Notes: a model not told the origin generated them from the sequence alone. A stretch of 64,000 bases of DNA from Candidatus Latescibacterota bacterium (GCA_963667175.2 CAXXXF010000016.1:32001-96000); one strand, 5' to 3'. Numbered from the stretch's first letter, positions 30,001 to 61,173 are shown. Numbers and translations are program-made.

Positions 30001-30143
30001 CCTTATTATTTGGTCACGCAGCCAACGGGTTGCCGAATGAATTTCGAACCGGCAGATCGGTCCGGCCGGGCGAGTGTTGCAATTTGCAACATTTTGATTA
30101 TACGGATTTTAAACGACTATTCGTCAGGGATCCTCAGACGCCG

Positions 30144-32926: not shown

Positions 32927-32942
32927 TGGCACAGGGATTGCA
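32927..32942 (+). promoter_or_regulatory. sigma54 (-24/-12) promoter
   Basis: TGGCACAGGGATTGCA matches TGGCAC-N5-TTGCW with exact spacing, about 40 nt upstream of the GTG start. Confidence 0.7.
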
Positions 32943-32980
32943 GCCCGCTGAAGTGTCGACACTTGCGGGAGGAGAATCGC

Positions 32981-42467: not shown

Positions 42468-42496
42468 TTGACAGCTTGATTTATCTTGTCTATATT
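42468..42496 (+). promoter_or_regulatory. sigma70 promoter upstream of the formate dehydrogenase operon
   Basis: TTGACA-17 nt-TATATT. Confidence 0.7.
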
Positions 42497-42770
42497 ATCT
42501 TGAGCGGGTGGCTGTCGGTCGCAAGGCGCTGGCTTGCGGTTTACGTCGTTGCGTGTCATACAGGCAATCGAAATCTTCATCATGCTTCGATCGTTTCGGG
42601 ATTCATTCTGTATTGATGCACTGATTTCTTTTGCGACTCCGTGAACTGAAGCGCGGCCGAATTGCGACCTGAAGTCGTCTTTACGGTTCCGGCCACTTCC
42701 CGGCGAAAACGGCCCGGTTGATCCGGATTCAGGCGGGTTGTTTGTATACAGGCATCGATGGGAGCGTTCC

Positions 42771-44432
42771 ATGACGGGCCTTCGGGACGACGAGCTGGTT
42801 CGAAGCTGGAAAGACGAGCCGGCGCCCCTGCTGCCGTTGTTGCACGCGTTCCACGACCGGGATGGATATATCTCCGATGAGGCCATCCGATCCATATCCG
42901 CGGGCTTGAAAACACCACTGGCGGATCTGTTTGGAACCGTTACGTTCTACCATCACTTATCCCGCAAGCCCGGGGGCCTGCATGAATATCGGGTGTGCAC
43001 GGGCCCGGTATGCGCGCTTCAGGGAGCGCGGGAGATGTGCGATGCCCTTAACGGTGTACCTATGGCCTGCCCGGGCAGGTGCGACCAACCGATACCCGTA
43101 ATCCAGAACCACCGCGTGCTCGTGGGTCCGAACGCAGGGGATCTGCAGGAGGTCCCGACGCCAATGCCGGAAGACAACCCGGGCGGCTTCGAGGAATGCG
43201 TCTTTCGTCATATTCGAACGCCGAAGCGTTCGGAACTCCGGGAGTATCGCGAGACTCGTGGATACCACGGTCTGGAAAAGGCCGTAACCAGGATGGCGCC
43301 AGCGGAGGTCGTGGAACGGGTCACGCAGAGCGGGCTGGCCGGGCGCGGGGGGGCCGGCTTCCCCACGGGCGCAAAATGGAGGGCGGTTGCGGACGCCGGC
43401 GGCGGTACGAAGACGGTTGTCTGCAACGCCGACGAAGGGGAACCCGGCTGCTTCAAGGATCGCGCCCTGATGGACCATGATCCCCACTCGGTGCTGGAGG
43501 GAATGGCCATTGCCGCGTACGCAACCGGCGCCAAACGCGGGTTCATCTATCTCCGGTACGAGTACCCGCAAACGTGGAACGTCCTGGAACGCGCCCTCGG
43601 AGAAGCCGAGGCCGCCGGATTGCTTGGCAATGGCATTATGGGGACTGACTTCGACTTTCGGGTGCATCTTCGGCGCGGGGGAGGGGCGTACGTGTGCGGA
43701 GAAGAGGGGTCGCTGCTCAACAGCCTGGAGGGCAAACACCCGTTCCCGAGGAACCGCCCGCCCTTTCCCGTAACCCACGGGTTCGAGGATATGCCCACGG
43801 CGGTAAACAACGTTGAAACGCTGGTTGCCGTACCTCAAATCCTCCGGAAAGGCGCGGATTGGTACCGGGCACTCGGACTGAACGGACATCCAGGCACCAA
43901 AGTCATCAGTCTTTCGGGCGATATATCGAACCCGGGGAACTACGAGGTTCCCTTCGGCCTGCCGCTGAAGACCCTGCTGTATGATTGGGGCGGCGGCGCG
44001 CCCGGGGGCCGGAGCATCCAGGCGGTCACCATGGCGGGGTTGTCCGGAGGGTTTATCGCGGGTGACGCACTGGAAGCCACGCTCGACGAACCCGGCCTCC
44101 GCGGTTACGGGTCGTTTCTGGGCGCCGGTGGCATCATCGTCTTTGACGCCAGCCGGAACATGGTCGAGGTTGCCCGCGGCGCGATGGCCTTTTTTGCAGA
44201 CGAGTCCTGCGGCAAGTGTTTTCCGTGCCGCATCGGGACTCGCCGGTTGTCGGAAAGGCTTAAAGGTGACGGCGGCCCCCGGCAGGTCGGGACGTGGCGG
44301 GCTGAGGTCCATGATATCGGCCAGACCATGATCGCGACCAGCGCGTGCGGACTGGGCACGGCGGCGCCTCTGGTGACCGAAAGCCTCATGAAATACTTTC
44401 CGAATCAGGTGGAGACGCACGTCGCACGTTAG
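42771..44432 (+). CDS. NAD-dependent formate dehydrogenase diaphorase subunit, NuoE-NuoF (FdsG-FdsB-type) fusion
   Basis: N-terminal NuoE-like region (TFYHH, CTGPVC...CPGRC); NuoF motifs GRGGAGFPTG, NADEGEPG, YVCGEE, ESCGKCFPCR, CGLG. Confidence 0.88.
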   Translation: MTGLRDDELVRSWKDEPAPLLPLLHAFHDRDGYISDEAIRSISAGLKTPLADLFGTVTFYHHLSRKPGGLHEYRVCTGPVCALQGAREMCDALNGVPMACPGRCDQPIPVIQNHRVLVGPNAGDLQEVPTPMPEDNPGGFEECVFRHIRTPKRSELREYRETRGYHGLEKAVTRMAPAEVVERVTQSGLAGRGGAGFPTGAKWRAVADAGGGTKTVVCNADEGEPGCFKDRALMDHDPHSVLEGMAIAAYATGAKRGFIYLRYEYPQTWNVLERALGEAEAAGLLGNGIMGTDFDFRVHLRRGGGAYVCGEEGSLLNSLEGKHPFPRNRPPFPVTHGFEDMPTAVNNVETLVAVPQILRKGADWYRALGLNGHPGTKVISLSGDISNPGNYEVPFGLPLKTLLYDWGGGAPGGRSIQAVTMAGLSGGFIAGDALEATLDEPGLRGYGSFLGAGGIIVFDASRNMVEVARGAMAFFADESCGKCFPCRIGTRRLSERLKGDGGPRQVGTWRAEVHDIGQTMIATSACGLGTAAPLVTESLMKYFPNQVETHVAR

Positions 44433-44475
44433 TAGCTGGCGCATGTTAATCGTAACCGAATCCGGAAGGCGGGGA

Positions 44476-47205
44476 ATGATGGTTGCAGACGGGGATAAAG
44501 CCGATACCGCCACAATGACGCTGGACAGCCAGACAGTCAGGTTTTCCGACGGGGAAACCGTTTTTGACGTTGCGCAAAGGCACTCGAAATTCGTGCCGAC
44601 CCTGTGTTACGATTCCCGCCTGAAACCCTTTGGCAGTTGCCGCCTCTGTGTGGTCGACGTGGAAGGCGCGCGAACCCCCCTTGCTTCGTGCACGACCCCT
44701 GCAACGCCCGGGATGGTCGTTCGCACGCAGACGGATGCAATACAGAAACATCGCAAGGTGTTGCTGGAGTTGGTGGCCTCCGAAAACCCCGACGTGGACG
44801 TAGACCCCCTTAGCGGCTATGCCTCCCAGGAACTGGCTACGCTTGTCGATCGATACGGCGCGCGGACGGGCCGGTTCAGAGGCACCCGTTCCGGACGCAG
44901 CAAGCCGGAGGACGACAACCCGTTTCTTCTGCGAGACTATGAAAAGTGCATTTCCTGTTACCGTTGCGTCCGGGTGTGCGCCGAGCAGGAGGGGGACGAC
45001 GCAATCAGTGTGATGAACCGCGGTTTCGATACGCAGATCGTTACCGAATTCGACGGCTTGCTGAAAGAGTCGTCGTGTACGTTCTGCGGGCAGTGCATTC
45101 AGACGTGCCCGACGGGCGCCCTTGCGGACCGGAAGGCGCTCCGGGCGGCCGGCGAACCGGGAGAAATAGAAAAGACCCGGACCGTCTGTCCGTATTGCGG
45201 GGTCGGTTGTTCGGTGGACATGATGACAAAGGGGGAGAAGATCGTAGGAATCCAGCCCGCGATGGACGGTCCAGCGAACCTGGGTGCGCTTTGTGTAAAG
45301 GGGCAGTTTGCGTTCGATTTCGTGCAGCACCGCGAACGGCTGCGAGTGCCGCTGGTGCGGCGGGAAGACGGCAGGCTGCGCGAAGCCGGCTGGGAGGAGG
45401 CGCTGGATCGCGCGGCGCAGGGATTCATGCATGCACGGACGTCGCATGGAAATCTCAGCGCGTACGGCGTGGCGTCCGGCCGTGCGCCAACCGAGGCCGC
45501 TTACGTGATGGGCAAATTCATCCGCGCCGGCTTCGGTACCAACTACATCGACAACTGCAGCCGTGCCTGACACGCCCCTACGGTTGCCGGTCTGGCAGCC
45601 ACCGTCGGAAGGGGCGCGATGTCGAATCCACTGGTCGACATGGAGAAGCCCGATGTGTTCTTCTGCATCGGGACGAATATGACCGAGTGTCATCCGGTGG
45701 CGGCCACGCGCATGAAGAAAGCGGTACGCGGGGGTGCGAAGCTGATCGTGGCGGATCCCCGGCGCATCCCGCTGGCGGAGATGGCGGATCTGTATCTTCC
45801 GTTGCGTGTGGGGTCGGATGTTGCCCTTCTGCTTGCGATGGCGCACGTGATTGCGAGGGAGGGGTTGATCGACAGGGGGTTTGTCGAAAGCCGGACGACG
45901 AGGGCCGGGGACTTTCTCGAGCACGTGAAGGAATATCCCCCGGAGTGGGCCGAACGGATTACGGGGGTGCCGGCAAAGGATATCGAACTCGCCGCGATCT
46001 GGTACGGCATGGCGGATAGGGGCGCCATCTACTATACGCTGGGCATCACCGAACACATCTGCGGCGTCGACAACGTTCAGAGCCTGTGCAACCTGGCGCT
46101 GATGACGGGAAACGTGGGCCGCGAAGGCACGGGCATCAATCCCATGCGCGGTCAGAATAATATCCAGGGCGCGGGGGATGCAGGCGCTATCCCGGACAAA
46201 TTCCCCGGGTTCCAGGCGTGCGATGATCCGGAGATGGCGGCGAGATTCTCGCGAATTTACGGCCGGCCTCTGAAACCGGAAAAGGGAATAACGAAGGTGG
46301 CGGCGCTGAACCTTTGCGGAGACCGCATCCGCGCCATGCTGATCGACGGCGAGAACACGGTCGTATCCGACCCCGACAGGGCCCATTGCGCGAAGGCATT
46401 GCAGAGCCTGGACCATCTGGTGGTGATCGACATCTTCCTGACCGAAACGGCCAGACTTGCCGACGTCGTGCTGCCGGCCACGGCATGGGGCGAAACGGAC
46501 GGGACGTGTTCGAACACGGAGCGGCGCGTTCAGCGTCTGCGCGCCGCGGTCCCGCCCCCCGGGGAGGCCCGCCCGGATTGGTGGATTGTCAGTGAGATTG
46601 CGAAACGGATGGGAGCGCAGGGGTTCGACTTCACTTCCGCGAAAGACGTGTTCAACGAGCTGTGCGCCGTATCCCCGATATACGCGGGATTGAATTGGGA
46701 TCGAATCGAACATGGCCAGTACCATTGGCCGGTTCCTGACGCCGATCATCCGGGCACGCCGATGCTGCACGAAGGCGAATTTGTGAATGGCCGGGGCATC
46801 TTCACAAAACATCGCTACCGCAATCCTGCGGAGACGGTCAGCGACGAGTTTCCCGTATGGTTGACGACCGGCCGCAGATTGCAGGCATACCACACGCGGA
46901 CTCAGACCGGACGGGCCGCGGGGATGGACTACTTTCTGTCCGAAGAGGCTCTGGAGGTGCATCCGTCGGACGTGGTGGCCTGGGGACTTACCGACGGCGG
47001 CTGGTGCCGGATGTCGAGCGAGCGCGGTTCCATCCGGATCAAGGTCAAGGCGACCCGGCAGTCGCCGCGGGGGACCGTGTTCGCCAGTTTCGGCTTCAAT
47101 GACGTTCCCGTGAATATCCTGACGGGTTCGGGCTACGATCCGGTGACGGAAACGGCCGAATTGAAGGTGTGCCCGGTTCGTATTGAATCAATTGTTCCGG
47201 AATGA
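44476..47205 (+). CDS. fdhF: Selenocysteine-containing formate dehydrogenase alpha subunit (Mo/W-bisPGD); TGA 45568-45570 = Sec
   Basis: Track ORFs 44443-45570 and 45619-47205 are in the same frame. Read-through gives DNCSRA-U-HAPTVAGL. Also 2Fe-2S/4Fe-4S N-terminus, CPYCGVGC, RGQNNIQG. Confidence 0.93.
45582..45600 (+). promoter_or_regulatory. Bacterial SECIS element
   Basis: Hairpin GGTTGCC-GGTCT-GGCAGCC starting 11 nt after the TGA, similar to the E. coli fdhF SECIS. Confidence 0.85.
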
Positions 47206-47226
47206 TTTACTCCCGAAGGTTAAAGA

Positions 47227-48057
47227 TTGAATTCAGGCATTACACAGCGGGACGTGTCCAGGGTGAACAACGGCTTTCCGGCGCGTCCGGTTCAGGACGA
47301 CATCGCGGTTGAAGAGCCCCTGGAAATCCGCGTGGCCGGAGATCCGGTTGCCATAACCATGCGGTCGCCGGGTGACGACGCCCGGCTTGCGGCGGGCTTT
47401 CTCTTTTCAGAAGGGATTATTGCGTCCATCGAGGACGTGGGACGGGTAACCCACTGCGGAAGGCCGGGGACGGAGGCGTACGGAAACACGATCGACGTGC
47501 TGCCCGCGCCCGGCCACAGCCTGGATATCGAGCGGGTCTCCGCCAGCCGCCGGGGAACGCTGACGACGTCGGCGTGCGGGGTCTGCGGGCGGCAGGGCGT
47601 GGAAGACCTGATGGCGCGTTGTTCTGTTTTGCCGCCCGGGCCGCGGATATCGGCGGAACTGCTCCTGGATACGATTGAACGGATGACGCGGATTCAGCCC
47701 ACGTTCACCCATACCGGCGGCGTGCACGCCTCCGCCGCGTTCGGCCGGGACGGCCGCCCGCTTGTGTGTTCCGAAGACGTCGGACGCCACAATGCCGTGG
47801 ACAAGACCATCGGCGCCCTGCTGTTCGACCGTCTGGTGGGCGCGTCGTCGGGCGCCGCGCTGCTGGCCGTAAGCGGCAGAGCGAGTTTTGAAATCGTGCA
47901 GAAAGCGGCCGTCGCGAAAATCCCGATTGTCGCAAGCGTCTCCGCGGCCAGTTCTCTCGCGGTCGATCTCGCAACCGATGCGGGCATCACCCTCGCGGGT
48001 TTCGTTCGCCGCAGGGGATTCAACCTGTACGCGCACCCCGAACGGATCGGACAATAA
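47227..48057 (+). CDS. fdhD: Formate dehydrogenase accessory sulfurtransferase
   Basis: VEEPLEI, TMRSPG, SACGVCG, TGGVHA, EDVGRHNAVDK, SGRASFE. Confidence 0.93.
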   Translation: MNSGITQRDVSRVNNGFPARPVQDDIAVEEPLEIRVAGDPVAITMRSPGDDARLAAGFLFSEGIIASIEDVGRVTHCGRPGTEAYGNTIDVLPAPGHSLDIERVSASRRGTLTTSACGVCGRQGVEDLMARCSVLPPGPRISAELLLDTIERMTRIQPTFTHTGGVHASAAFGRDGRPLVCSEDVGRHNAVDKTIGALLFDRLVGASSGAALLAVSGRASFEIVQKAAVAKIPIVASVSAASSLAVDLATDAGITLAGFVRRRGFNLYAHPERIGQ

Positions 48058-48058
48058 G

Positions 48059-48286
48059 ATGCCTATCTTCGAGTTCATCTGCAGCAGGTGCCGCCATCCC
48101 TTTGAGGCCTTCATTCAGGGGTCCCGGGAGCCGCGTTGTCCGTCCTGTGGCAGCGCCGAACTTGAGAAGCAGCTTTCGGTTTTCGCTGTCAGCGGCGGCG
48201 GCGGTCGGACGGAGGCGCCCGCGCCCCTAGGACCGTGCGGAACCTGTGGAGACCCCAGGGGCCCGGGCGCCTGTACGATAAGCTAG
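48059..48286 (+). CDS. FmdB family zinc-ribbon protein
   Basis: MPIFEFICSRC..FE...CPSCGS...S.FA, C-terminal CGTC...C. Confidence 0.88.
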   Translation: MPIFEFICSRCRHPFEAFIQGSREPRCPSCGSAELEKQLSVFAVSGGGGRTEAPAPLGPCGTCGDPRGPGACTIS

Positions 48287-48413
48287 TGCCCGGTCCCAAG
48301 AACACCTCACCATTCTTCCGCCTGCCTGCGCAGTGCCCTGCGCTGCAGGCAGGCAGATTCATCGCGATCCGGCGGCCGAATTCAGGCGATCGATTTCCGG
48401 TACGGAACACCAG
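48283..48413. mobile_element. MITE-like element, short copy (131 bp)
   Basis: Starts at the CTAG overlapping a stop codon; first ~80 bp nearly identical to 52221-52300; imperfect terminal inverted repeats. Confidence 0.7.
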
Positions 48414-48422
48414 ACATCATGG

Positions 48423-48449
48423 CCCGGTTCATAACACCGGGTTTTTTTT
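48423..48449 (+). terminator. Intrinsic terminator after the fdh operon
   Basis: CCCGGT...ACCGGG followed by T8. Confidence 0.7.
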
Positions 48450-48687
48450 ATGCGCACAAAACGAGGAAGCGAACGCATTTTCAACCGAACCCGACGAATA
48501 CGGAGATCATCTTCCGCGTTAACGTTGAAAGAAATGCATTTGTGCATTTTGACATACGAACCTATCTTTGGCAGCGTCGGCTGTTTCTTACGTTATTCCA
48601 CGAGATTGACCTCGTGAACGGATGGTTTGCGTGGTCCCGGTCGAACCGGAACGGACGCGGGCCGGCCGGGCCCGGGGAGAATGCTGT

Positions 48688-50424: not shown

Positions 50425-50560
50425 AGGGGTCTGCAGACGCTGCCCACCGGCGCATCGTGCGGTTCGATAAACTGCGCGGCGGTTTCGCGCATCTCCGTAC
50501 CCGGCGCGCAGGAGCGATTTGCCCGGGTAGCGTGAACTCGATATACGCAGGGAATGGGAG

Positions 50561-51391
50561 ATGGACGATCGGTTCCTGAAGGGACGCGCCGCAATTGTCA
50601 CGGGAGGCGCAAGTGGACTCGGCAGGGCAATCGCGTTGCGTCTGGCGCACCGCGGCGCGGACGTCTGCATCATGTCCCTGAGCAGCCGGCGGGTGGAAAG
50701 AGTCGATAGCGAGGTCAAATACTTCGCGGACGTCGGCGAGATCGAGGCCACCCGAAGGGAGATACGGGAAACGGGTGTGCGGTGTATCGGTCTGGACGGA
50801 GACGTCAGTTCGACGTCGGACGTAGAGGAAATGATCGTCCGGACGGTCGAGACATTCGGCAGGCTGGACGTCCTGGTGAACAACGCCGCGACAAACGTGA
50901 TCCATCCCGTCCTCGGCCACGACAACCGGGCCTGGCGGCGCGTGATCGATGTCAATCTGTTCGGTCCCTACCTGTGCGCCCGGAACGCGCTGCCCCATAT
51001 GATCGAGAATGGTTGGGGACGTATCGTCTCCATCGGATCCACGAATTCCCACGTCGGCACGTCCGGTTACAGTGCTTACGCCGCATCCAAGCACGGGTTG
51101 TTGGGGTTCAGCCGATCCCTCTCGCTGGAAGTGGCCCGCCACCATATTACGGCCAATACCGTCAGCCCGGCAACGATCGAGACACCATCCGGGCAGATGC
51201 ATCTGCTCAGGTGGGCGGAAGACCAGGGACTTTCTCCCGAAGCGATGCGCGGGGAGTTCATGAAATCCTATCCGCAGGGGAGATTCCTTCGCCCGGAGGA
51301 AATCGCAGACCTGGTTGTCTATCTGTGCCGGGAAGAAGCGCGGGGAATCAACGGGGAAGATATCCGTGTGACAACGGGCGCGATGTACTGA
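50561..51391 (+). CDS. Short-chain dehydrogenase/reductase (classical)
   Basis: TGGASGLG, NNA, YAASK. Confidence 0.92.
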   Translation: MDDRFLKGRAAIVTGGASGLGRAIALRLAHRGADVCIMSLSSRRVERVDSEVKYFADVGEIEATRREIRETGVRCIGLDGDVSSTSDVEEMIVRTVETFGRLDVLVNNAATNVIHPVLGHDNRAWRRVIDVNLFGPYLCARNALPHMIENGWGRIVSIGSTNSHVGTSGYSAYAASKHGLLGFSRSLSLEVARHHITANTVSPATIETPSGQMHLLRWAEDQGLSPEAMRGEFMKSYPQGRFLRPEEIADLVVYLCREEARGINGEDIRVTTGAMY

Positions 51392-51441
51392 GATGAACCG
51401 TATGGTCCTCTCCCGGGTTTCCGATTGTGAAGGAGACGGTG

Positions 51442-52224
51442 ATGGATCTGGGATTGAAAGGCCGCAGGGCGCTGGTGACCGGCGCGAGCAAGGGCATCGG
51501 CCGGGCGATCGCATTCGAGCTGGCAACGGAAGGCGCCGACCTGGCAATCTGCGCCCGCGGACCGCGCGCTCTGGAGGAAACGGCGGCGGCGTTGAAGGCG
51601 GCAACGGGCGTGAACGTGTTCGCGGGTGCCGCGGATGTAACGGTCGACCGGGAGGTCGGGACTTTCGTGGACGGGGCCGCCGCCGCGCTGGGCGGGCTCG
51701 ACGTCCTCGTGAACAACGCCGGCAGTGCGCTTCCGGGCGCCTTCGAAGAGGTGGACGAGGTTCGCTGGCGCGCGGATCTGGACGTAAAGCTGTTCGCCGC
51801 GATGCGCTGCGTGCGTACGGCCCTGCCTCATCTGAAACAGAGCACGCAGGCAAGGATTATCAACATAAACTCGATTGTCGGACGCCAGATTGCACCGGAA
51901 TACATCGCCAACAGCACCGATCGAGCCGCGTGTCTGGCGTTCAGCAAAGGTCTGGCGGACAATCTGGCGCAGTACGGCATTCTTGTAAACAGCGTGAATC
52001 CGGGCAACGTCAGGAGCCAGGCCTGGGACAGCACGCTGGACTACTTCGCGCCGGACGCGGAACTGGAAGACTATTACGTCCGGGCGAGCCGGGAAACGCC
52101 GCTGGGCAGGGTGGCGGACGCCGGCGAGATTGCCGCGGTGGTGGCCTTTCTGGCGAGCAAGCGGGCAAGCTACATCACGGGAACTTCCATCGACGTGGAC
52201 GGCGGGCTGGCGAGGTACATCTAG
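51442..52224 (+). CDS. Short-chain dehydrogenase/reductase (atypical catalytic motif)
   Basis: MDLGLKG, TGASKGIG, NNAG; YxxxK replaced by NSTDR; VDGG. Confidence 0.9.
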   Translation: MDLGLKGRRALVTGASKGIGRAIAFELATEGADLAICARGPRALEETAAALKAATGVNVFAGAADVTVDREVGTFVDGAAAALGGLDVLVNNAGSALPGAFEEVDEVRWRADLDVKLFAAMRCVRTALPHLKQSTQARIININSIVGRQIAPEYIANSTDRAACLAFSKGLADNLAQYGILVNSVNPGNVRSQAWDSTLDYFAPDAELEDYYVRASRETPLGRVADAGEIAAVVAFLASKRASYITGTSIDVDGGLARYI

Positions 52225-52421
52225 TGTCCTGTCCCAAAAATACCTCACCATTCTTCCGCCTGCCTGCGCAGTGCCCTGCGCTGCAGGCAGGCCGATTCAT
52301 CCCGTCTCGCAGCGTTCCCTTCGCTCGCCGACCTGGCCAGGTCGCCTGCGCGCTGGCGCCTTGCGAGCCGGGCGACTCGTCGGCCGAATTCAGGCAACTT
52401 ATTTCCGGGACAGAACACTCG
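52221..52421. mobile_element. MITE-like element, long copy (201 bp)
   Basis: Left end CTAGTGTCCTGTCCCAAAAAT versus reverse-complemented right end CGAGTGTTCTGTCCCGGAAAT; homologous to 48283-48413. Confidence 0.75.
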
Positions 52422-54676
52422 TGTCCAATCCTCGTTTCGAAAGACTGTCGCCCGTCCCCGGCCTCGGGCTGGAGGGCTACGCCGACGAGATGACGCTCCC
52501 GGCCGGTGCGGAAATCGCGTTCAAGCTGGGCGGACCGCCCGGCGAGGTGAAGGTGAACCTCGCGAGGCTGATCCACGGAGACCCCGATTCCCGCGGACCG
52601 GGTTACAGGGAAGAACGTGTCTCGTGGGGACAGCCCGATCGGGTTGCGGTTGAGGAACGGACAACGGATTACGGATCGTTTGTCGAGATTCCACACGCCG
52701 CAACCCTGAATCCTGGAGGCGCGTTTACCCTGGCGCTCTGGTTTCTTCCGACGCTGGGCGGCGGGGGATGGCGCGCCCTTATGGTGAAGTGGGCGCGTGA
52801 AAACCTGTGCTACGGGATTTTCTTCGCCGGCGAGCGCTTTCTGACTGCCGCCGTGTCTCAGGACGGCAGGAAGACGCATTGGGCAACGGCCAGAGAGAAC
52901 ATCCACGTCGGCAACTGGCAGTTCGCGGCGTTCTCGTACCGTCCGGAACCGGGTGAAATCCGTCTGTATCAGCTGATCGGGGATACCGCGGGTGTGGTCG
53001 AAACCCGTTCGTCTTCCGATGCGCTGAGTTGCATATCGAAAAAAACCGGAAAAGGACCGGTGTTCGCGGGAAACGCGCCGCTGGTGTTCGGCGCCTGCCC
53101 GGAACCGGACCGGGAAGGCAGCCACTGGGCGCATTTTACGGGGAAGATCGGACACCCGGTGCTTTTTGGAACCGCTCTGGATCGGGAGGCGATCCATGCC
53201 CTCGCGGGGGGACGGGACCCCGCATCCCTCGGCCCGCTGCTGGGTTGCTGGCATCTGGGCGAGGAGGTGACCGGCGCTCGCGTCGTCGATCTTTCCGGAA
53301 ACGAGAATCACGGGCGCGCCGTAAATGCGCCGGGGCGCGCGGTTACGGGCCCGTTCTGGCGGGGAATGCCGTCCCGGCTCTATACCGATCGGCCCGGCGA
53401 TTACAACGCGATCTATCTGCACGAAGACGACCTGGAAGACGCCGGCTGGCCGACTTCCTTCGTGGCCAAAGTTCCCGCTGACGCCAGGTCAGGCATCTAT
53501 GCCCTCCGCGCCGATACGGATGCGGACGCACTCTTCGTACCGTTCATCGTGACGTCGAAGAAGCCGCTGTCGGAACTGGCATGCCTGATCCCGACGCTTA
53601 CGTGGCAGGCCTACGGCAGCAACCGCGCGGCGTACAGTTATACGGAAGACGGCGTGCTGGACCGCACCCTGTGCACCTACGACGTTCACAGCGACGGGTC
53701 GATGGTAACCTATTATTCGCGCCTGCAGCCCACGCGGGGCTGGAACCCCTGTGCGGGCTTCCAGAACTGGGGCGCGCACAATATCACCGCGAATCTTTAC
53801 CTGATTGACTGGCTGGAAGCGCTTGACTTCGAATACGACGTCTTTGCGGACGAAGACCTGCATCGCGGCGGTGTCGGGCTCCTCTCGAAATATCGATGTG
53901 TAATTCTGGGCAGCCACCCCGAATACCACACTGAAACCATGGTGGACAGCCTGGCCGCGTACGTGCGAGACGGGGGCCGCCTCGTCTATCTGAGCGGCAA
54001 TGGCCTGTACTGGGTGATGTCCATCGACCCCCGCCGTCCGCACCTGATCGAACTTCGCCGGGGAGGAGAAGGCGATTACGGCCCCACGTACGATCCCCCA
54101 CCGGGGGAATCCCAGCACAGCACGACGCTCGAACTGGGGGGCCTGTGGGCAAGGCGCGGGCGTCCGCCTCGCAGGACGGTCGGCGTGGAACATGCGTCCA
54201 ACGCCTGGATCGAAGCCGGAGAAAAAAGGGGTTTTCGTCGCCTGCCGTCGAGCCGAGACGCCAGGTACGCGTGGATTTTCAACGGCGTCGGAGAAGATGA
54301 GGCCATCGGAGACTTCGGCCTGAATCTGGGCAGCGCGGCCGGATTCGAAATGGATGCCGTGCAGGCCTGGGCATGGGACGGGTCCACGCCCGAACCCGTC
54401 GTACTCGCCCGGGCGGCGCATCCCGGATTCACCCCCGCCCGTCGCACGCACGTCCCGCCGACGGCGGACCTGGCCATTATGGTGTATCCGGGGGGAGGCG
54501 CGGTCTTTTCGGCGGGCTCCGTAACCTGGACCGGAAGTCTCTCCCACAATGATTATCTGAACAATGTCTCCGTCATCACCCGAAACGTGATTCGCAGGTT
54601 TCTGGACGCGTCTGCCGGTGGCACCGTGCTTGGAGGCGCCGTCGAAACGTCACCGCCGGGCGCATCCTCGACATGA
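52421..54676 (+). CDS. N,N-dimethylformamidase large (beta) subunit family protein with LamG domain
   Basis: LIHGD, AIYLHEDDLEDAGW, PTLTWQAY, YDVHSDGS, HPEY, YLSGNGLYW, GFEMD, GAVFSAGS; start uncertain. Confidence 0.88.
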   Translation: MSNPRFERLSPVPGLGLEGYADEMTLPAGAEIAFKLGGPPGEVKVNLARLIHGDPDSRGPGYREERVSWGQPDRVAVEERTTDYGSFVEIPHAATLNPGGAFTLALWFLPTLGGGGWRALMVKWARENLCYGIFFAGERFLTAAVSQDGRKTHWATARENIHVGNWQFAAFSYRPEPGEIRLYQLIGDTAGVVETRSSSDALSCISKKTGKGPVFAGNAPLVFGACPEPDREGSHWAHFTGKIGHPVLFGTALDREAIHALAGGRDPASLGPLLGCWHLGEEVTGARVVDLSGNENHGRAVNAPGRAVTGPFWRGMPSRLYTDRPGDYNAIYLHEDDLEDAGWPTSFVAKVPADARSGIYALRADTDADALFVPFIVTSKKPLSELACLIPTLTWQAYGSNRAAYSYTEDGVLDRTLCTYDVHSDGSMVTYYSRLQPTRGWNPCAGFQNWGAHNITANLYLIDWLEALDFEYDVFADEDLHRGGVGLLSKYRCVILGSHPEYHTETMVDSLAAYVRDGGRLVYLSGNGLYWVMSIDPRRPHLIELRRGGEGDYGPTYDPPPGESQHSTTLELGGLWARRGRPPRRTVGVEHASNAWIEAGEKRGFRRLPSSRDARYAWIFNGVGEDEAIGDFGLNLGSAAGFEMDAVQAWAWDGSTPEPVVLARAAHPGFTPARRTHVPPTADLAIMVYPGGGAVFSAGSVTWTGSLSHNDYLNNVSVITRNVIRRFLDASAGGTVLGGAVETSPPGASST

Positions 54677-54707
54677 ATGGTGGCCCAACACCGGAGAGCC
54701 CCATCCG

Positions 54708-55775
54708 ATGAACGCCGGACACTTGGAAAACCCCCGGAACCTGATGCAGCGCCTCGACGAAGACGCAGTCATCTGCGCCGAGGGATATCTGTTTGAACTC
54801 GAGCGTCGAGGGTATCTGCAGGCGGGCCCTTTCGTGCCGGAAGTCGTGCTGGAGCATCCCGAGGTCGTCGCCGGGTTGCATCGGGAGTTCTGGCGCGCGG
54901 GTTCGGACGTGATCGAGGCGTTTACGTATTACGGCCACCGCGAAAAGCTGCGCCTTATCGGCAAGGAGCACCTTCTGGAACCCCTGCAGAAGCGCGCGCT
55001 TGCGATCGCGAAATCGGTCGCCGCCTCGGTCCAGGGAGAACGTCCGCTGGTTGCCGGCAACATCTGCAATACCAACGTCTGGGATCCGGGCGATCGCGTG
55101 ACCGACGCTCGGGTAACGGAGATGTTCGACGAACAGGTGGCCTGGGCGGTCGAAGCCGGCGTCGATTTCATGATAGCCGAGACTTTCTCCTTTTTCGGCG
55201 AGGCCGCCCTGGCGTTGGCAGCCATAAAACGCGCCGGAATGTCGGCGGTCGTGACGTTTGCCCACCATCGGGAGAAAGGGCTGCGGGACGGCTTTCTGCT
55301 TGATGAGGCCGCAAAACGTCTGGAACAGGCCGGCGCCGACGTGGTGGGAGTAAACTGCACCAGAGGGCCAGAGACGATGCTGCCCGACGTGGAACGCATT
55401 CGGCGAGCGGTATCCTGCCACGTGGCGGCGTTGCCGGTGCCGTATCGAACGACTGGGGAGCAGCCCACGTTTCAGTCGCTTCGGGAGGAGGGCGCCGAAC
55501 CGCCACCCGAGGGACGTTCGTTTCCGACGGCTTTGGATCCCTTTACCTGCCACAGGTACGAAATGGCCGCGTTTGCGCGTCGGGCCTTCGATATGGGTGT
55601 CCGGTACCTGGGGGTCTGCTGCGGCTCCGGACCCCATCACGTCCGATCCATCGCCGAAGAACTGGGGCGAACCCCGCCGGCCAGCCGGTACTCGCCCGAT
55701 ATGTCCAGGCACTACGCGCTGGGGAGCGACTCCAGCCTCAAGAGCCACAATCGGGCGTTTGTCGAGAAGCTTTGA
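54708..55775 (+). CDS. Betaine-homocysteine S-methyltransferase-like enzyme
   Basis: EGYLFELERRGYLQAGPFVPEVVLEHPE..LHREF.RAGSDV, GVNCTRGP, FPTALD, GVCCG. Confidence 0.85.
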   Translation: MNAGHLENPRNLMQRLDEDAVICAEGYLFELERRGYLQAGPFVPEVVLEHPEVVAGLHREFWRAGSDVIEAFTYYGHREKLRLIGKEHLLEPLQKRALAIAKSVAASVQGERPLVAGNICNTNVWDPGDRVTDARVTEMFDEQVAWAVEAGVDFMIAETFSFFGEAALALAAIKRAGMSAVVTFAHHREKGLRDGFLLDEAAKRLEQAGADVVGVNCTRGPETMLPDVERIRRAVSCHVAALPVPYRTTGEQPTFQSLREEGAEPPPEGRSFPTALDPFTCHRYEMAAFARRAFDMGVRYLGVCCGSGPHHVRSIAEELGRTPPASRYSPDMSRHYALGSDSSLKSHNRAFVEKL

Positions 55776-55851
55776 GGCATCCCGCGGCCGCGCCGTATCC
55801 TCAATCGTACGTTCGACCGGAAGTCGCCGGCGCCACGGAGCGTTCAAGTCG

Positions 55852-57456
55852 ATGCGATCCTGTGCGGAGGCCATCGCCGAATCCCTGTACGAAGAAAAGG
55901 TCCGGTACGTTTTCGGTCATCCCGGCGGGGAGGTCGTGGACCTGATCGACGCGCTGGAAAATACCGGTATCCGGTTCGTACTGACGGGACACGAGGCCGC
56001 GGCCGCCTTCATGGCCAGCGCGATCGGACGGCTCACCGGGACGCCCGGCGTGTGCCTGGCGACGCTTGGACCGGGCGCATGCAATCTGGTGCTGGGCGTC
56101 GGCGCCGCCTATCTCGACCGGGACCCGATGCTTGCCATTTCCGCGCGTAGCGCGGCATCACGGGCCGGAGTCAGCGAGAAACAGAATCTGTCTCTCCATG
56201 AAGTGTTCGATCCCGTCTGCAAATGGTCCGTTGCCCTTGAAAAGAGCGGCGTCGAGACCACCGTGCGCTCCGCTATGGGGCATGCAGCGGCGCCGCCGGC
56301 CGGCCCGGTGTACCTCACGATCCCCAATGACGACGCGGTGGCCTACGCGTCGCCGGGCAGGGGGGCGCGGACGCCAGACCTCCCGGATTGCGCGTGCAAC
56401 GGAGATCTCGATACAATCGCAAGGGCGCTGAATCGGGCAAATCGCCCCGTCGGCGTTGTCGGGGTCGCGTTGAACGTCAGGCAGGATTCAGCCGCAGTGC
56501 GTCGGTTTTTCGCAACGTCACGCATACCGTACGTGGTCCTGCCGCAGGCCAAGGGCGTCGCGGACGAATTCGGCGCGGGATATCTTGGCACGGTGGCGTC
56601 GGCCTCGGGAGACGCCGCCCTTGTAGAGCTGATCCGGAAGAGCGATTGCCTGCTTGGCGTGGGCTTCGACCCCGTCGAGTCGGCCCAGGAATGGCATCTG
56701 CGCCAACCCGTCTACTCCGTGGCCAATGCCTCGATCGCCTTTGGCGGCTTCGCGCCGGTGTCCGAGTGCGTGGGCGACGTCACGTCCCTGCTCACTCGGC
56801 TGCTGGAAGGGGTCGACGGGCGACCGTCCTGGACGGCGGACGAAATCCACGAATCGCAGAACGCCGTCGCGGATGCGATCAGTCCCGGCACGGGCGCTAC
56901 ACCCAGGGGCGCTTCCCCTTACCATCTGCTGCGTGAACTGTACGAGGCGATGCCCGGGGAGACGATTCTGTCGGTGGACGTCGGCGCCCACAAGATGCTG
57001 ATTTCGCAGGTGTGGCGGGCGCGTTCCCCAGGGACGTTTCTAACGTCAAACGGCCTGTCCGCGATGGGCTACGGGCTGCCGTCGGCACTGGCGGCAGCGC
57101 TGATCCGGCCGGGCCGGCCGGTGGCGGGCGTGTTTGGCGACGCCGGATTCGCGATGATGGTGCAGGAGTTGGAAACGGCGCGCAGGCTGGGCGTGCGCCC
57201 GTTACTGGTGGTGCTGTGCGACCGGTCTCTGGCCATCGTAAAGGTCGCCCAGGCCATGCGCCGCATTCCGTTCCGGGGCGTGGATTTCCAACCGGTCGAC
57301 TGGGCGAAGGTCGCCGACGGCTTCGGCGCCAGGGGCGTGAACGTGACGCGTCCGGAGGAAATGCGAAGGGTGGGGGAGGAGTGGCTGGCAAAACCGGAAC
57401 TGACGGTTGTGGCCGCCCGCGTGGACGAGGAATTATACACCGCGATGGAATATTGA
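55852..57456 (+). CDS. Thiamine-diphosphate-binding enzyme (acetolactate synthase large subunit-like)
   Basis: FGHPGG, HEAAAAFMA, TLGPG, SAMGYGLP, GDAGF..QELET. Confidence 0.88.
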   Translation: MRSCAEAIAESLYEEKVRYVFGHPGGEVVDLIDALENTGIRFVLTGHEAAAAFMASAIGRLTGTPGVCLATLGPGACNLVLGVGAAYLDRDPMLAISARSAASRAGVSEKQNLSLHEVFDPVCKWSVALEKSGVETTVRSAMGHAAAPPAGPVYLTIPNDDAVAYASPGRGARTPDLPDCACNGDLDTIARALNRANRPVGVVGVALNVRQDSAAVRRFFATSRIPYVVLPQAKGVADEFGAGYLGTVASASGDAALVELIRKSDCLLGVGFDPVESAQEWHLRQPVYSVANASIAFGGFAPVSECVGDVTSLLTRLLEGVDGRPSWTADEIHESQNAVADAISPGTGATPRGASPYHLLRELYEAMPGETILSVDVGAHKMLISQVWRARSPGTFLTSNGLSAMGYGLPSALAAALIRPGRPVAGVFGDAGFAMMVQELETARRLGVRPLLVVLCDRSLAIVKVAQAMRRIPFRGVDFQPVDWAKVADGFGARGVNVTRPEEMRRVGEEWLAKPELTVVAARVDEELYTAMEY

Positions 57457-57511
57457 CGTCACGAGGCGTTTTCGGCGCCGGACGGACCAGAATGTGAACG
57501 TGAGGCAACCC

Positions 57512-58849
57512 ATGCGTTTACCCGAACACACAACATATCTCATTATAGGCGCAGGTGTGCACGGTCTGAGCATCGGATATCACCTGGCGCGGGAATTGAA
57601 GAGGCGGCGCAGAGGCGGCGGGGCCGAGGTGCTGATTGTAGACAAGACGGGGGTGGCCGCAGGCGCTTCCGGCATCGCCTGCGGCGTGATCCGCAACAAC
57701 TATTTCCAGCCGGCCATGCGCGAGCTGATGGCGCACAGCGTCGATATATGGGAGTCCGATCCGGAAGCGTTCAGTTACCACCCCGTCGGCTACATGCAGA
57801 TCAGCCCCGAGTCCATGCGCGAGGACGTCGCCGGCATCGCGCAACAGCAGCGCGAGATCGGTTACGAATCGGAGTTTATAGAAGGCGGCGCAGACTGTAT
57901 GAAATATATGCGGGGTCTCTTTCACGACTGGCAGGCGAAGGGCGTCACGTCCGTACTTCACGAGAAAAGAGGGGGTTACGCGAACAATCGCGCATCGATG
58001 ACGGGCCTGGCCGAAAAGGCGGAAACCGAGGGCGTCAGGATTCTGGATGGCGTCTCGGTGACCGGATTCCGGTTCGGCGGAGGGGCGATTTCGGCAGTGG
58101 AAACAGATTGCGGCGTGATCCGGGCAGACGAGATCGTCATCGCCGTGGGGCCCTGGACAAAACTGCTCTGGGATATGCTGGATCTGCCCGGGTCGGTGAG
58201 CATCAAGGGCCCGGACGGGGCCCTGCGCCACAATATCCCGATGTGGAGCTACTGGTGTCTGCAGGAAGGCACATTGGGCGTAGACCCCCACTATCTCAAG
58301 ACCGACGACGGAAGGATGCCCCCCGTCATCCATCTGGACACGGACGCGCCGCTTTATTCCGACGTCGACGGTTCGCTGATTACGGACCGCGAGTGGGGCA
58401 TCTACTACAAGCCGGATTTCCACTTCGGGGGAGTACAGGGGGGGGCAATGCCTTACCGGGTTGAGAGACCGGCGGACGAGGTGGCGGTCGATCCCTACGG
58501 TCCGGAATCGCCCGATTTCATCGTCGGCGACCGGTTTGCGCATCAGTGGTGTTCCGCATTGGCATTCTGCCACAAACGGTTTGAAGGAAAGTCCACACTC
58601 TTCAAGAAAGAACCATCCGGCGGCATCGGCGCGTTCACTCCCGACAGTTTTCCGGTGTTCGACCGGTTTCACGGGAACGGCTATATTATCGCGGATTCCA
58701 ACCACGGGTACAAGATGATCGGCGTGGGCAGGCTCGTCGCTGAGGAGCTCATGGGCGTACGATCCCGTCTCCTGGAGCCGTTCCGCTTTTCTCGCTATGC
58801 CGAGGGCAGGCTGCATCCGGTTTCCAACAGCCCGTTTCCCTGGAGCTGA
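57512..58849 (+). CDS. FAD-dependent N-methyl amino acid oxidoreductase (MgdA/sarcosine oxidase beta-like)
   Basis: IIGAGVHG, GASGIACGVIRNNYFQP, FTPDSFP, DSNHGYKM, C-terminal SPFPWS. Confidence 0.8.
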   Translation: MRLPEHTTYLIIGAGVHGLSIGYHLARELKRRRRGGGAEVLIVDKTGVAAGASGIACGVIRNNYFQPAMRELMAHSVDIWESDPEAFSYHPVGYMQISPESMREDVAGIAQQQREIGYESEFIEGGADCMKYMRGLFHDWQAKGVTSVLHEKRGGYANNRASMTGLAEKAETEGVRILDGVSVTGFRFGGGAISAVETDCGVIRADEIVIAVGPWTKLLWDMLDLPGSVSIKGPDGALRHNIPMWSYWCLQEGTLGVDPHYLKTDDGRMPPVIHLDTDAPLYSDVDGSLITDREWGIYYKPDFHFGGVQGGAMPYRVERPADEVAVDPYGPESPDFIVGDRFAHQWCSALAFCHKRFEGKSTLFKKEPSGGIGAFTPDSFPVFDRFHGNGYIIADSNHGYKMIGVGRLVAEELMGVRSRLLEPFRFSRYAEGRLHPVSNSPFPWS

Positions 58850-58919
58850 CCACCGACCGCGTGGACGCCGGAGTGACGTCTAGAGACAGACGCCCGGAAC
58901 GCAGACGGAGAATGCGCCC

Positions 58920-60167
58920 ATGTTGCAACCCGACGTCCGGCGGCAGATGCGGGTCCGGCATACGGACTGGGGCGACGCAGTGCGTATCGACCTCAACCAA
59001 CTCGGCGCGCGGCTGCCCGCGCAGGGGGCGCCCGGCGCAACATGGTCGGAAGCAACCGGCGAGTCGTTGCGTGACGAATGGGCCGAACGTCAGAACGAGG
59101 CGCTTTGCGCCGCGATGGCGGACGTCGCCGCCGGTTCCGGTGGGAGCTTCGATTCGTTCGCTGAGTGGACGGTCCTGCACAACCGGCGGTACGACGGCGC
59201 GCATATGCGCGAATTGCGGCGGAAGCGGTTCCGCCAGGGCTACCGTGCCGCGATCACCACGCTCGGCTGGGCGCATCCCGAGACCAGCCGTTCCACATGC
59301 ATTCAGGCCGTTGCATATGTTCCGAAAACCGGTGCTGGTTTCAAACAGTCCACGTGGCGGCCCGAGTCGCTTTACGATACCGAATTCATGGCGCTCGCGC
59401 CCGCCGTTGTGACGGATTTCGGCGGAGGCCGACAGATCCATCTGTCGGGCGTTGTCGCGTGGGACGAGCGGATTACTCCGCTCTTCGAAGGGCAGCCCGA
59501 ACGTCAGATCTCCCACGTGTTCGACCTCATCCAGGACGTTTTCAACGAAGGCGGCGGATCGCTGGGCGACGTTGTGCGACTGCGTCCGTTCGCCCACTCT
59601 TCGGAGATCGCGCGGCTCATCCGGGCCGAAGTCAGCCGCCGCTGGGCGGGCGGTCCGAAGCCCGTCGTGATGATGTCGGACAGCCGGCATTTTGGCGACC
59701 CGCCGAGCCTGTACGCGGAAATACAGGTCCTGGGCGTGACGTCGGACGGCCACGGCAGTGTTCGCCATGGGGAAGCGGAACTCCCCCTCGGGACAATCGA
59801 TGAAAGCGCAACCCGCATCCGCTGCAGCCGGGCGCGCGAATGGGAAATGGTCCACGTGGGTGAACTGCGGGCGCGACCGGAGGCAGGCTGGAAGTGGGAG
59901 GCCGAGCAGGTCGCCGGGCAGATCAGCGCGGTCCTCGAACGGATGTCACTCACGCCGGACGACGTCTGTCTGACACTTGCCTATGTGAGTTCACCCGAAG
60001 CCGCGGCGGCGTTCCCGAAAATGGTGGCCGGCGCGGTACCGATAGAAACGGTGCACGTGCTCCCGTGTCCTGTAATGCCCGAATTGGACGGTCGCTGCAT
60101 CAAGGTGGAGATGACGGCCCGAAGACGTCCGGATCCGGCCTCCAGGTCGCAGGCCGGGCGCCCCTGA
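58920..60167 (+). CDS. Protein with tandem RidA/YjgF-like domains
   Basis: Central domain IHLSG...Q...VF..I...GGSLGDVV...AEIQ; flanking degenerate copies ending CIQAVAY and KVEMTA. Confidence 0.6.
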   Translation: MLQPDVRRQMRVRHTDWGDAVRIDLNQLGARLPAQGAPGATWSEATGESLRDEWAERQNEALCAAMADVAAGSGGSFDSFAEWTVLHNRRYDGAHMRELRRKRFRQGYRAAITTLGWAHPETSRSTCIQAVAYVPKTGAGFKQSTWRPESLYDTEFMALAPAVVTDFGGGRQIHLSGVVAWDERITPLFEGQPERQISHVFDLIQDVFNEGGGSLGDVVRLRPFAHSSEIARLIRAEVSRRWAGGPKPVVMMSDSRHFGDPPSLYAEIQVLGVTSDGHGSVRHGEAELPLGTIDESATRIRCSRAREWEMVHVGELRARPEAGWKWEAEQVAGQISAVLERMSLTPDDVCLTLAYVSSPEAAAAFPKMVAGAVPIETVHVLPCPVMPELDGRCIKVEMTARRRPDPASRSQAGRP

Positions 60168-60267: not shown

Positions 60268-61173
60268 ATGATGGGGCTGGAAATGCGTATATTGGCAACG
60301 GGATTGACAAAAGTCTATCCGAAGGGGACCGTGCCCGCGCTGGACAACGTCGACCTGGAGATCGGACGGGGAACGTTCGGGCTGCTTGGCCCGAACGGCG
60401 CCGGAAAGACCACGCTGATCAAGGTTCTTTCAACGCAGATGGCGCCAACGGCCGGGCACGTCAGAATCGGCGCCTGGGATTTGCAGCGCAACCGCTCCGA
60501 AGTGCGGCGGCGGCTGGGCTACCTTCCCCAGCACTTCGGCGCATATCCGCAACTGACGGCGTGGGAGTTTCTGGACTATATGGACCGGCTGGCGGCCGGA
60601 CGCCGTCGGATCGGGCGGAGGGCGCGAGTGCGCGATGCGCTCGAAAACGTGGGGCTCTACGACGCGCGGGACCGGCGGACCGGCGCCTTTTCCGGCGGAA
60701 TGATGCGGCGACTCGGGATTGCTCAGGCCATTGTCGGCGATCCGGAAATCCTGATTGTGGACGAGCCCACCGTGGGGCTCGATCCGGAAGAACGCATCCG
60801 TTTTCGAGGGATTCTCGCTCGGCTGAGTCGGGACAGGACAATCCTGATTTCCACCCATATCGTAGGCGATATTTCGAGCACCTGCGATGACCTGGCGGTG
60901 CTGAATGAAGGGCGGATCGTCTACAGGGGGTCGCCCGATGCCCTGGTCGCTCGCGCGAATGACAAGACCTGGCGGGTACAGGCCGACGACGCGGAGTTCG
61001 AGACGATATCCCGGCGGTTTCTGGTCGTGACGGTCGCCGTGGATGGCGGACGAATGGACCTCCGGTTCGTGGGCGACGGCCGGCCGCCGGCCCACGCCGA
61101 ACCGGTACCGCCAAACCTCGAAGACGCATACGTGTATTATATGGGCCGGGAGAATCAGGAAAGGGCCGCGTAG
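60268..61173 (+). CDS. ABC transporter ATP-binding protein (ABC-2 type)
   Basis: GPNGAGKTT, GYLPQ, FSGGM, IVDEPT, ISTH, LEDAY. Confidence 0.93.
   Translation: MMGLEMRILATGLTKVYPKGTVPALDNVDLEIGRGTFGLLGPNGAGKTTLIKVLSTQMAPTAGHVRIGAWDLQRNRSEVRRRLGYLPQHFGAYPQLTAWEFLDYMDRLAAGRRRIGRRARVRDALENVGLYDARDRRTGAFSGGMMRRLGIAQAIVGDPEILIVDEPTVGLDPEERIRFRGILARLSRDRTILISTHIVGDISSTCDDLAVLNEGRIVYRGSPDALVARANDKTWRVQADDAEFETISRRFLVVTVAVDGGRMDLRFVGDGRPPAHAEPVPPNLEDAYVYYMGRENQERAA

Follow-up and report, generated by a model that had tools for sequence, protein, structure and literature searches.

Among the closest known counterparts of the system discussed here are two members of one amidohydrolase family. The dimethylformamidase (DMFase) of Paracoccus sp. 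DMF (6lvb; Angew Chem 2020, PMC7686228) has a large subunit of three domains with a mononuclear iron site, in which Tyr399, Tyr440 and Glu521 serve as ligands and His519 and Asn547 lie nearby. This large subunit is inactive alone and needs a small subunit of about 15 kDa (PMC7686228). A genome survey counted 952 genomes with the large-subunit gene, against 41 with that of the small subunit (bioRxiv 10.1101/2021.03.18.435917). The second relative, N-acetyl-(R)-beta-phenylalanine acylase (8huy, 8i59, 8i5a), seems to need no small subunit; entry 8huy gives a single molecule name for its chains A and B. Here we describe a homologue of these enzymes encoded in a 64,000-nucleotide stretch of an uncultured, marine-type Candidatus Latescibacterota bacterium (GCA_963667175.2 CAXXXF010000016.1:32001-96000, hereafter the window), together with the genes that accompany it. 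Six of them, encoding two short-chain dehydrogenases (SDR1 and SDR2), the amidohydrolase (hereafter the amidase), a methyltransferase resembling betaine-homocysteine methyltransferase (BHMT), a thiamin diphosphate (ThDP) enzyme and an FAD oxidoreductase of the DAO family, form the core of a real catabolic module, so far undescribed and shared horizontally, which occurs in Latescibacterota and Bryobacterales and partly in Acidiferrobacteraceae.

An earlier note, made by a model from the window sequence, had joined twelve genes of this region into one system for C1 (one-carbon) metabolism, in which a formate dehydrogenase (FDH) is linked to the DMFase homologue. Our literature search found no paper on the six-gene cluster, on N-acetyl-(R)-beta-phenylalanine acylase or on DUF6605, and the papers that mention dimethylformamidase either have degradation of dimethylformamide as their subject or name the enzyme in passing. 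The reading that we favour, with moderate confidence, is that of an ordinary FDH operon standing beside a trimmed, horizontally shared catabolic cluster, a coupling of the two being possible and not required.

Six genes cluster across phyla

A single scan of genome contigs with a 24-sequence amidase alignment yielded 187 confirmed stretches, the best 80 of which were kept together with flanks of at most 10 kb on each side, and 17 window proteins were compared with these 80 loci by tblastn. The amidase tree comprised 66 sequences; 15 rows, including L016 and L019, were left out because one segment was covered to less than 85% or a stop codon was present. An orthologue clade of 17 rows with full support (SH-aLRT 100) unites the window with L001-L015 and L017. 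The relatives of this clade plus L016 and L019 (64-69% identical) make up the orthologous set of 18 loci used below, and the other 62 family loci lie outside it. Ten close relatives, at least 81% identical, were counted as one lineage. The closest of the public relatives is the Candidatus Latescibacterota genome of locus L001, whose amidase is 95% identical to that of the window.

SDR1 orthologues, 57-95% identical, adjoin the amidase gene in 17 of the 18 loci, the eighteenth contig being too short to judge, and the label "SDR pair adjacent" requires one change on the amidase tree, marking one clade; none of 500 shuffles was as low. The other core genes follow with decreasing frequency (Table 1). 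Both Bryobacterales loci, L011 and L013, contain all six core genes in a cluster of different order, at 55-75% protein identity and with no FDH. SDR1, SDR2, the amidase and the BHMT-like protein are found in two other Latescibacterota loci, L012 and L016, the latter also with an FDH upstream, while the Acidiferrobacteraceae loci L015 and L017 hold SDR1, SDR2 and the amidase, L015 with a ThDP gene on the other strand as well. Across the 62 loci outside the clade (E <= 1e-5), there were no matches to FdhA, FdhD, NuoEF, the BHMT-like or the RidA-like protein, and one weak match each to the homocysteine S-methyltransferase (HMT), the ThDP enzyme and the DAO protein.

Since the six genes recur together in other phyla and in different orders, their clustering exceeds chance and points to a shared pathway. 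The earlier note had envisaged that homologues might prove scattered and never co-localised; for the six-gene core, they are clustered in the Bryobacterales loci and, as subsets, elsewhere. That the window merely holds unrelated genes of shared orientation is hardly credible. Gaps of 136-400 nt, each roomy enough for a promoter, do occur after the FmdB gene, the gene for a fusion of HMT with a methyltransferase (MTase) and SDR2, and transposon relics tell of past rearrangement, but this reading would leave unexplained both the recurrence of six genes across phyla in different order and the single change of the SDR-pair label.

The twelve genes listed earlier are all present, and their family labels hold at the level of domains, with full-length matches in Pfam and NCBIfam; in total, 14 genes run from 42738 to the window end, all on the + strand, in DNA of about 61% G+C. 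To treat them all as one system goes too far. The six-gene core is conserved, but the FDH genes accompany it in Latescibacterota only, and the HMT-MTase fusion, RidA-like and ABC genes in close relatives only.

Table 1. Features of the window from 42468 onwards, with their occurrence among the 18 orthologous loci
Feature	Coordinates	Strand	Basis	Orthologous loci
Promoter-like site TTGACA-17 nt-TATATT	42468..42496	+	11/12 consensus positions; upstream of fdh genes	
NuoE-NuoF fusion, diaphorase (NAD-linked electron transfer) subunit	42738..44432	+	2Fe-2S_thioredx, Complex1_51K, SLBB, NADH_4Fe-4S	
FdhA, selenocysteine (Sec) formate dehydrogenase alpha, N-terminal NuoG-like Fe-S domain	44443..47205	+	TIGR01591, 724 bits vs cut-off 666	11/18 (ten close relatives and L016)
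FdhD sulfurtransferase	47227..48057	+	PF02634; TIGR00129, 162 bits vs cut-off 141	11/18 (ten close relatives and L016)
FmdB-type zinc ribbon, 75 aa, last gene of fdh unit	48059..48286	+	PF09723, 48 bits	11/18 (ten close relatives and L016)
Miniature transposon-like repeat, copy 1, short form	48283..48413	.	after FmdB stop codon	
Intrinsic terminator-like hairpin and eight T, end of fdh unit	48421..48451	+	8-bp stem (hairpin 48421-48443); same hairpin in L001	
HMT and class-I S-adenosylmethionine (SAM) MTase fusion, 600 aa	48622..50424 (likely ATG 48688)	+	PF02574 at residues 44-334; MTase domains at 381-531	10/18 (close relatives only)
SDR1 short-chain dehydrogenase, core gene	50561..51391	+	Pfam/NCBIfam	17/18 (L009 starts 180 nt before amidase, not judgeable)
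SDR2 short-chain dehydrogenase, core gene	51427..52224	+	distribution as SDR1	17/18 (as SDR1)
Miniature transposon-like repeat, copy 2, long form	52221..52420	.	fills 196-nt SDR2-amidase gap	
DMFase-like amidohydrolase, LamG and DMFA2_C, 751 aa, GTG start, core gene	52421..54676	+	DMFA2_C 233 bits; Laminin_G_3	
BHMT-like zinc methyltransferase, core gene	about 54708..55775	+	PF02574, 141 bits	15/18 (absent L015; L017, L019 contigs end early)
ThDP enzyme, acetolactate-synthase type, core gene	about 55852..57456	+	three ThDP domains	14/18 (absent L012, L016)
DAO-family FAD oxidoreductase, core gene	about 57512..58849	+	PF01266	12/18
RidA-like single chain, 415 aa, three predicted YjgF/RidA-like units	58920..60167	+	PF01042 at residues 170-229 only	9/18 (close relatives only; lost in L010)
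ABC-2-type ATPase and large permease	60268-61173; 61177 to beyond 64000	+		kept in close relatives only

The amidase stands between DMFase and an acylase

We assign the window protein, a metal amidohydrolase, to the DMFase family. By sequence it aligns with the large subunit of Paracoccus DMFase (6lvb) at E 8e-86, and almost equally well with the acylase 8huy (E 6e-81). An AlphaFold model (pLDDT 79.5) retrieved 6lvb_A with Foldseek at E 4e-57, with a TM-score of 0.78 at 28% identity, the values for the acylase being 0.74 and 29%; it has the three-domain fold of the large subunit, which the acylase shares. Residues Y398, Y420, H499, E501 and N527 align with Y399, Y440, H519, E521 and N547 of DMFase, that is, with the two tyrosines and the glutamate that bind iron and with the neighbouring histidine and asparagine. 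Among 24 amidase homologues, the first four are invariant and N527 nearly so.

Identity to Paracoccus DMFase is only 28%. The window has no small-subunit gene for the amidase, as the 196-nt gap upstream consists of a repeat and the next gene downstream encodes the BHMT-like protein, and no dimethylamine-handling genes lie nearby. Small open reading frames (ORFs) beside the orthologues in L011, L012 and L016 include no conserved counterpart. Since DMFase and an N-acetyl-amino-acid acylase are equally close to the amidase, release of formate should not be assumed, as it was in the earlier proposal.

The gene contexts of more distant homologues suggest a broader theme. In the sister clade (Actinomycetota, L018-L024), SBP_bac_5 transporters are encoded in 6 of 6 loci, and creatininase, hydantoinase, amidase or dipeptidase genes in some of them. 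A homologue on an Agrobacterium vitis plasmid (L081) is flanked by a small hypothetical gene on one side and by a solA-type amine oxidase gene on the other, with sugar ABC transporter genes alongside. These contexts point to the breakdown of amide-bearing nitrogen compounds, rather than C1 metabolism, as the theme of the family. Two local observations may be recorded here. The small hypothetical gene on the plasmid (133 residues, L081:7603-8004) overlaps the start of the amidase homologue, at the position expected of a small-subunit gene. In L016 (10001-12210), the amidase orthologue matches in two overlapping pieces that cover query residues 1-246 and 223-737, owing to a frameshift, faulty assembly or decay of the gene.

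The other core enzymes

The BHMT-like protein aligns over its residues 9-347 with rat BHMT1 (1umy, E 1e-52), a full-length match to the mammalian enzyme (1umy, 1lt7), and shares its three zinc cysteines; these residues (C217, C304 and C305) are invariant in the alignment. A DGG motif near the N-terminus is the fingerprint of the BHMT family. Unlike mammalian BHMT1, the window orthologues (6 of 6) have AEG in place of DGG and a phenylalanine in place of the tryptophan that follows "AGP". The protein also fails the bacterial BHMT model NF005718, with 88 bits against a cut-off of 338.

The best solved relative of the ThDP enzyme is an acetolactate synthase (E 2e-74), but the score of curated catabolic acetolactate synthases is missed (best model NF006187, 362 bits vs a cut-off of 509), and the AlsS models fall further below. 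The DAO protein had been called MgdA/SoxB-like. Its DAO family membership stands, but the likeness to SoxB-type enzymes is confined to the N-terminal FAD-binding half (E 3e-15; PDB matches at residues 3-229), the soxB model TIGR01373 gives 67 bits vs a cut-off of 529, and its atlas clusters bear generic names only.

Additional genes in more distant clusters

The orthologous loci outside the close relatives carry genes that are missing from the window. A gene of the enolase superfamily lies upstream of SDR1 in L013, L015, L016, L017 and L019, its closest solved chain being deposited as a galactonate dehydratase (5olc, E 7e-67). In seven relatives, the SDR2-amidase interval is occupied by a gene for a LarA-like racemase (L012, L016, L019) or for an isochorismatase/RutB-like hydrolase (L011, L013, L015, L017), accompanied in six of the seven by an orthologous PhyH-type 2-oxoglutarate (2OG) oxygenase gene. 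GFO/IDH/MocA oxidoreductases are also found in relatives, and transporters differ by lineage, with TRAP genes in L012 and L016 and MFS and EamA genes in L011 and L013. L015, which has no BHMT-like gene, contains an MttB-family methyltransferase gene 5 kb away; this fits a methyl-onium substrate, as a single case. Homologues of the dehydratase and of the LarA-like, isochorismatase-like, PhyH and MttB proteins were found neither in the 64-kb window (tblastn, Pfam) nor in its close relatives. We take the cluster of the window lineage to have shed three genes that its relatives carry, those for the acid-sugar dehydratase, for the 2OG oxygenase and for the LarA-like or isochorismatase-like protein, and to have gained the widespread HMT-MTase fusion, the three-unit RidA-like protein and the ABC-2 pair.

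Such genes would suit the deacylation of an N-acylated hydroxy-acid, sugar-acid or sulfonate, in which the amidase would be an acylase, the SDRs, in relatives together with the dehydratase and the racemase, would handle a polyhydroxy acid and the BHMT-like protein would serve general methionine salvage rather than demethylation of the substrate. The galactonate dehydratase-like gene upstream of SDR1, the LarA-like 2-hydroxyacid racemase and the GFO/IDH/MocA and TRAP genes of relatives all fit, as does the presence of an N-acetyl-amino-acid acylase among the solved members of the family. We nevertheless consider this route quite unlikely, since the BHMT-like gene lies beside the amidase or DAO gene in 15 of the 18 orthologous loci and in two phyla, which is hard to square with a housekeeping role, and since the window itself has no dehydratase, racemase or TRAP genes. 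The same neighbours bear on the substrate suggested previously, a methylated N-heterocycle, which does not predict an enolase-superfamily dehydratase, a LarA-like racemase or TRAP genes.

An ordinary formate dehydrogenase unit and its boundary

The first of the two units (42738-48286) is an ordinary cytoplasmic, NAD-linked Sec formate dehydrogenase operon, closed by a terminator. It shares with NAD-dependent, NuoEF-coupled formate dehydrogenases (FdsABG type) the NuoG-like N-terminal Fe-S domain on the alpha subunit, a NuoE/NuoF diaphorase and FdhD. It differs from them in that NuoE and NuoF are fused and the active-site residue is selenocysteine, which still makes it an ordinary variant. The fusion scores 422 bits with nuoF_fam, below the equivalog cut-off, and its N-terminus matches FDH gamma. 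The in-frame TGA of FdhA lies at 45568-45570, and the same codon is TGA in 11 of the 11 loci with FdhA. A hairpin is present downstream, but its folding energy does not exceed that of shuffles (z -0.6), so the Sec assignment is based on conservation of the TGA and on the score with the FdhA family rather than on a selenocysteine insertion (SECIS) hairpin. FmdB follows FdhD in all 11 loci that hold FdhA. A 95-residue ORF at 48235-48522 was considered as FmdB and rejected, as it matches no family and the zinc ribbon is encoded at 48059-48286.

The island had been taken to begin at 42468, which is in fact the first hexamer of a promoter-like site, in a frame with stops; the first gene starts at 42738. 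The site is a candidate only, because the whole scan performed at chance level (4 found, 4.1 expected). Likewise, a scan of the whole window for sigma-54 promoters gave 23 matches against 21 expected, none of them upstream of a cluster gene.

Two elements separate this unit from the cluster. The terminator placed near 48423 by the earlier note is real, and its hairpin is kept in L001. It is preceded by the short copy of a repeat whose long copy fills the SDR2-amidase gap. Repeats of 84 and 47 nt in the window belong to one element with inverted ends of about 15 nt starting at CTAG, and copies in L002, L005, L010 and L014 occupy different sites in other orientations (coordinates in relatives: L001:8749-9999; L002:8008-8172; L014:5892-6107). 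In L001, an IS630-type transposase gene (DDE_3) stands at the SDR2-amidase junction, beside one repeat copy. We read the element at 48283-48413 and 52221-52420 as the relic of a miniature transposon, not as a regulator. A riboswitch or leader RNA at these positions was rejected in view of the mobile copies in relatives, the inverted ends and the transposase neighbour in L001; an Rfam search over both copies returned nothing at gathering score, only chance-level matches with E up to 10.

The boundary bears directly on whether the whole region is one integrated C1 island, in which a methylated nitrogen compound (betaine or N-methyl heterocycle) would give rise to an N-formyl intermediate, the DMFase homologue would free formate from this intermediate, the FDH would burn the formate and two homocysteine methyltransferases would form methionine. 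FDH adjacency in 11 of the 18 orthologous loci, including the otherwise rearranged L016, speaks for it, as do the conserved DMFase iron site, the two intact zinc methyltransferase domains (BHMT-like and fusion HMT) and, in relatives, the isochorismatase/RutB-like amidase and the one MttB, which fit the chemistry of a ring-opened N-heterocycle or betaine. However, the adjacency is limited to Latescibacterota: FDH genes are missing from the 10 kb around the amidase in L011, L013 and L015 as well as from all 62 family loci outside the orthologous set, and the terminator and the transposon relic intervene in the window. In addition, the amidase is equally close to an acetyl-amino-acid acylase, the HMT-MTase fusion is widespread and linked to the cluster in close relatives only, and the window cluster has no ring-hydroxylating, ring-cleaving or folate-linked C1 genes. 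We therefore hold an integrated island to be unlikely, and a role of the FDH as the sink for formate from the cluster is weakly supported; the idea stays alive as a minority view because the adjacency is kept in two diverged Latescibacterota lineages.

Genes confined to close relatives

The HMT-MTase fusion, two Hcy methyltransferases having been counted by the earlier note as parts of the pathway, has a life apart from the cluster, as it belongs to a well-conserved family found in several phyla. The best 120 database matches are all fusions of 570-619 residues with at least 61% identity, and their source names include Poribacteria, Acidobacteria, Tectomicrobia, Planctomycetes and others; it enters the cluster only in close relatives. 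The nearest match of the HMT domain is E. coli MmuM (5dml, E 3e-17), and that of the MTase domain is HemK2/N6AMT1 (E 5e-6). In the HMT domain, the DGG motif and the zinc cysteines are intact, DGG or DGA being kept both there and in a stand-alone HMT of L016. Our literature search found no described function for this fusion family.

RidA is a single YjgF domain of about 130 residues that forms a homotrimer, and chorismatases are built of three YjgF-like units. The RidA-like chain of the window, previously described as a tandem RidA, does contain a RidA domain, which Pfam detects in the middle unit only, but its model (pLDDT 88.6, pTM 0.89) predicts, with high confidence, three similar beta-alpha units. 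The predicted structure aligns whole with the chorismatase 4bps (FkbO/Hyg5 type, as is 5ag3) over 373 columns (E 7e-10, TM 0.45/0.54), and one unit aligns with RutC (TM 0.83). Identity is 10-14% and the whole-chain TM-score only 0.45-0.54. A weaker resemblance to ring-opening cyclic amide hydrolases was also noted, and 40 relatives were found in a large protein collection. In the close relative L010, the gene is cleanly deleted between the DAO and ABC ATPase genes (L010:16555-16762). As for the ABC pair, there is no sign of an importer, since no solute-binding protein accompanies it.

These additional genes are what could suggest biosynthesis, for instance of a sulfonium or betaine osmolyte from methionine, with oxidation of amino acids by the DAO and RidA-like proteins, reduction of keto acids by SDRs, SAM-dependent methylation by the MTase and decarboxylation by the ThDP enzyme. 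The gene families of the window can be arranged into such a scheme, and the fusion joins a SAM-type methyltransferase to a methionine-forming domain. It is a very improbable scheme all the same: the MTase fusion and the RidA-like gene lie outside the conserved core, the core includes a hydrolase, relatives add uptake-type TRAP transporters and dioxygenases typical of catabolism, and no ATP-grasp enzyme, ligase or other anabolic enzyme is present.

A proposed route and its weak points

The favoured reading, an ordinary FDH operon beside a shared catabolic cluster, assigns the second unit (48622-60167) to the breakdown of what is probably a small nitrogen compound. Its gene content, the conservation of its catalytic residues and its clustering are observed, and from them we infer the chemical steps and their order. 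The iron amidohydrolase, acting without a small subunit, would cut the amide bond of a small polar compound to give an amine and an acid (formate, acetate or other). The BHMT-like enzyme may transfer a methyl group from an onium centre, ammonium or sulfonium, to homocysteine or another thiol, and the DAO flavoprotein may convert the resulting amine via an imine to a carbonyl. Processing of the oxo or hydroxy carbon skeleton would then fall to both SDRs and the ThDP enzyme. In this respect, the earlier note is right that a multi-gene catabolic route is present, methyl transfer to a thiol probably being a part of it.

A more specific version can be formulated, which we offer as a doubtful possibility. 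The core would degrade a natural compound that combines an amide with an onium methyl group, such as a betaine or sulfonium osmolyte from marine animals or algae that bears an N-acyl or N-formyl group. The amidase would open the compound and need no small subunit, the AEG variant of BHMT would salvage the methyl groups as methionine, and the acid would be formate in Latescibacterota, which would explain why the Sec FDH operon has remained attached despite rearrangements. N-acyl taurines or taurobetaine, homarine or trigonelline, proline or homoserine betaines and pantothenate were considered as substrates, and none matches all core genes.

Several observations weigh against the favoured reading. 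FDH genes adjoin the cluster in both the window clade and L016, Latescibacterota lineages that have diverged (68% identical in the amidase, 78% in FdhA), despite rearrangement of the cluster, and the survival of this adjacency suggests some link of the cluster to formate. The thiol substrate of the BHMT-like protein is uncertain because AEG stands where the family has DGG. As the window has none of three gene families present in every more distant orthologous cluster, its version of the pathway may have changed or be in decay, and a transposon-like repeat reaches right up to the start codon of the amidase gene. Nothing in the window, be it a substrate, a transporter or a regulator, indicates a particular compound. 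Finally, the cluster is known from only about five independent lineages, and the high identity across phyla suggests transfer among organisms that possibly share habitats, so that the counts of loci do not represent independent events.

Other features of the window

Outside the region discussed above, a perfect sigma-54 promoter consensus was found at 32927-32942, 20 nt upstream of a gene for a 1451-residue lamin-tail-domain protein (32963-37318), and rpoN lies at 30030-31613. An inverted repeat of 49 nt (3-51 and 32542-32590) has arms that are 90% complementary and 32.5 kb apart. ARAGORN called a 102-nt tRNA-His at 4547-4648, inside a hydantoinase A/B gene pair (2714-6549); the call is probably false, since Rfam does not confirm it.

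Biological significance

Taken alone, the FDH part of the locus is ordinary, and the interest of the window lies in the cluster beside it. Although DMFase is known for its action on a man-made solvent, it belongs to a large family most of which has no small subunit, and a clade with partner genes conserved across phyla offers a handle on a natural substrate. Besides, the cluster gives access to a BHMT-like enzyme of bacteria in which the substrate motif is altered. Should a common marine osmolyte or a host metabolite prove to be the substrate, the module would mark a new sink for carbon, nitrogen and methyl groups in uncultured bacteria of the symbiont type.

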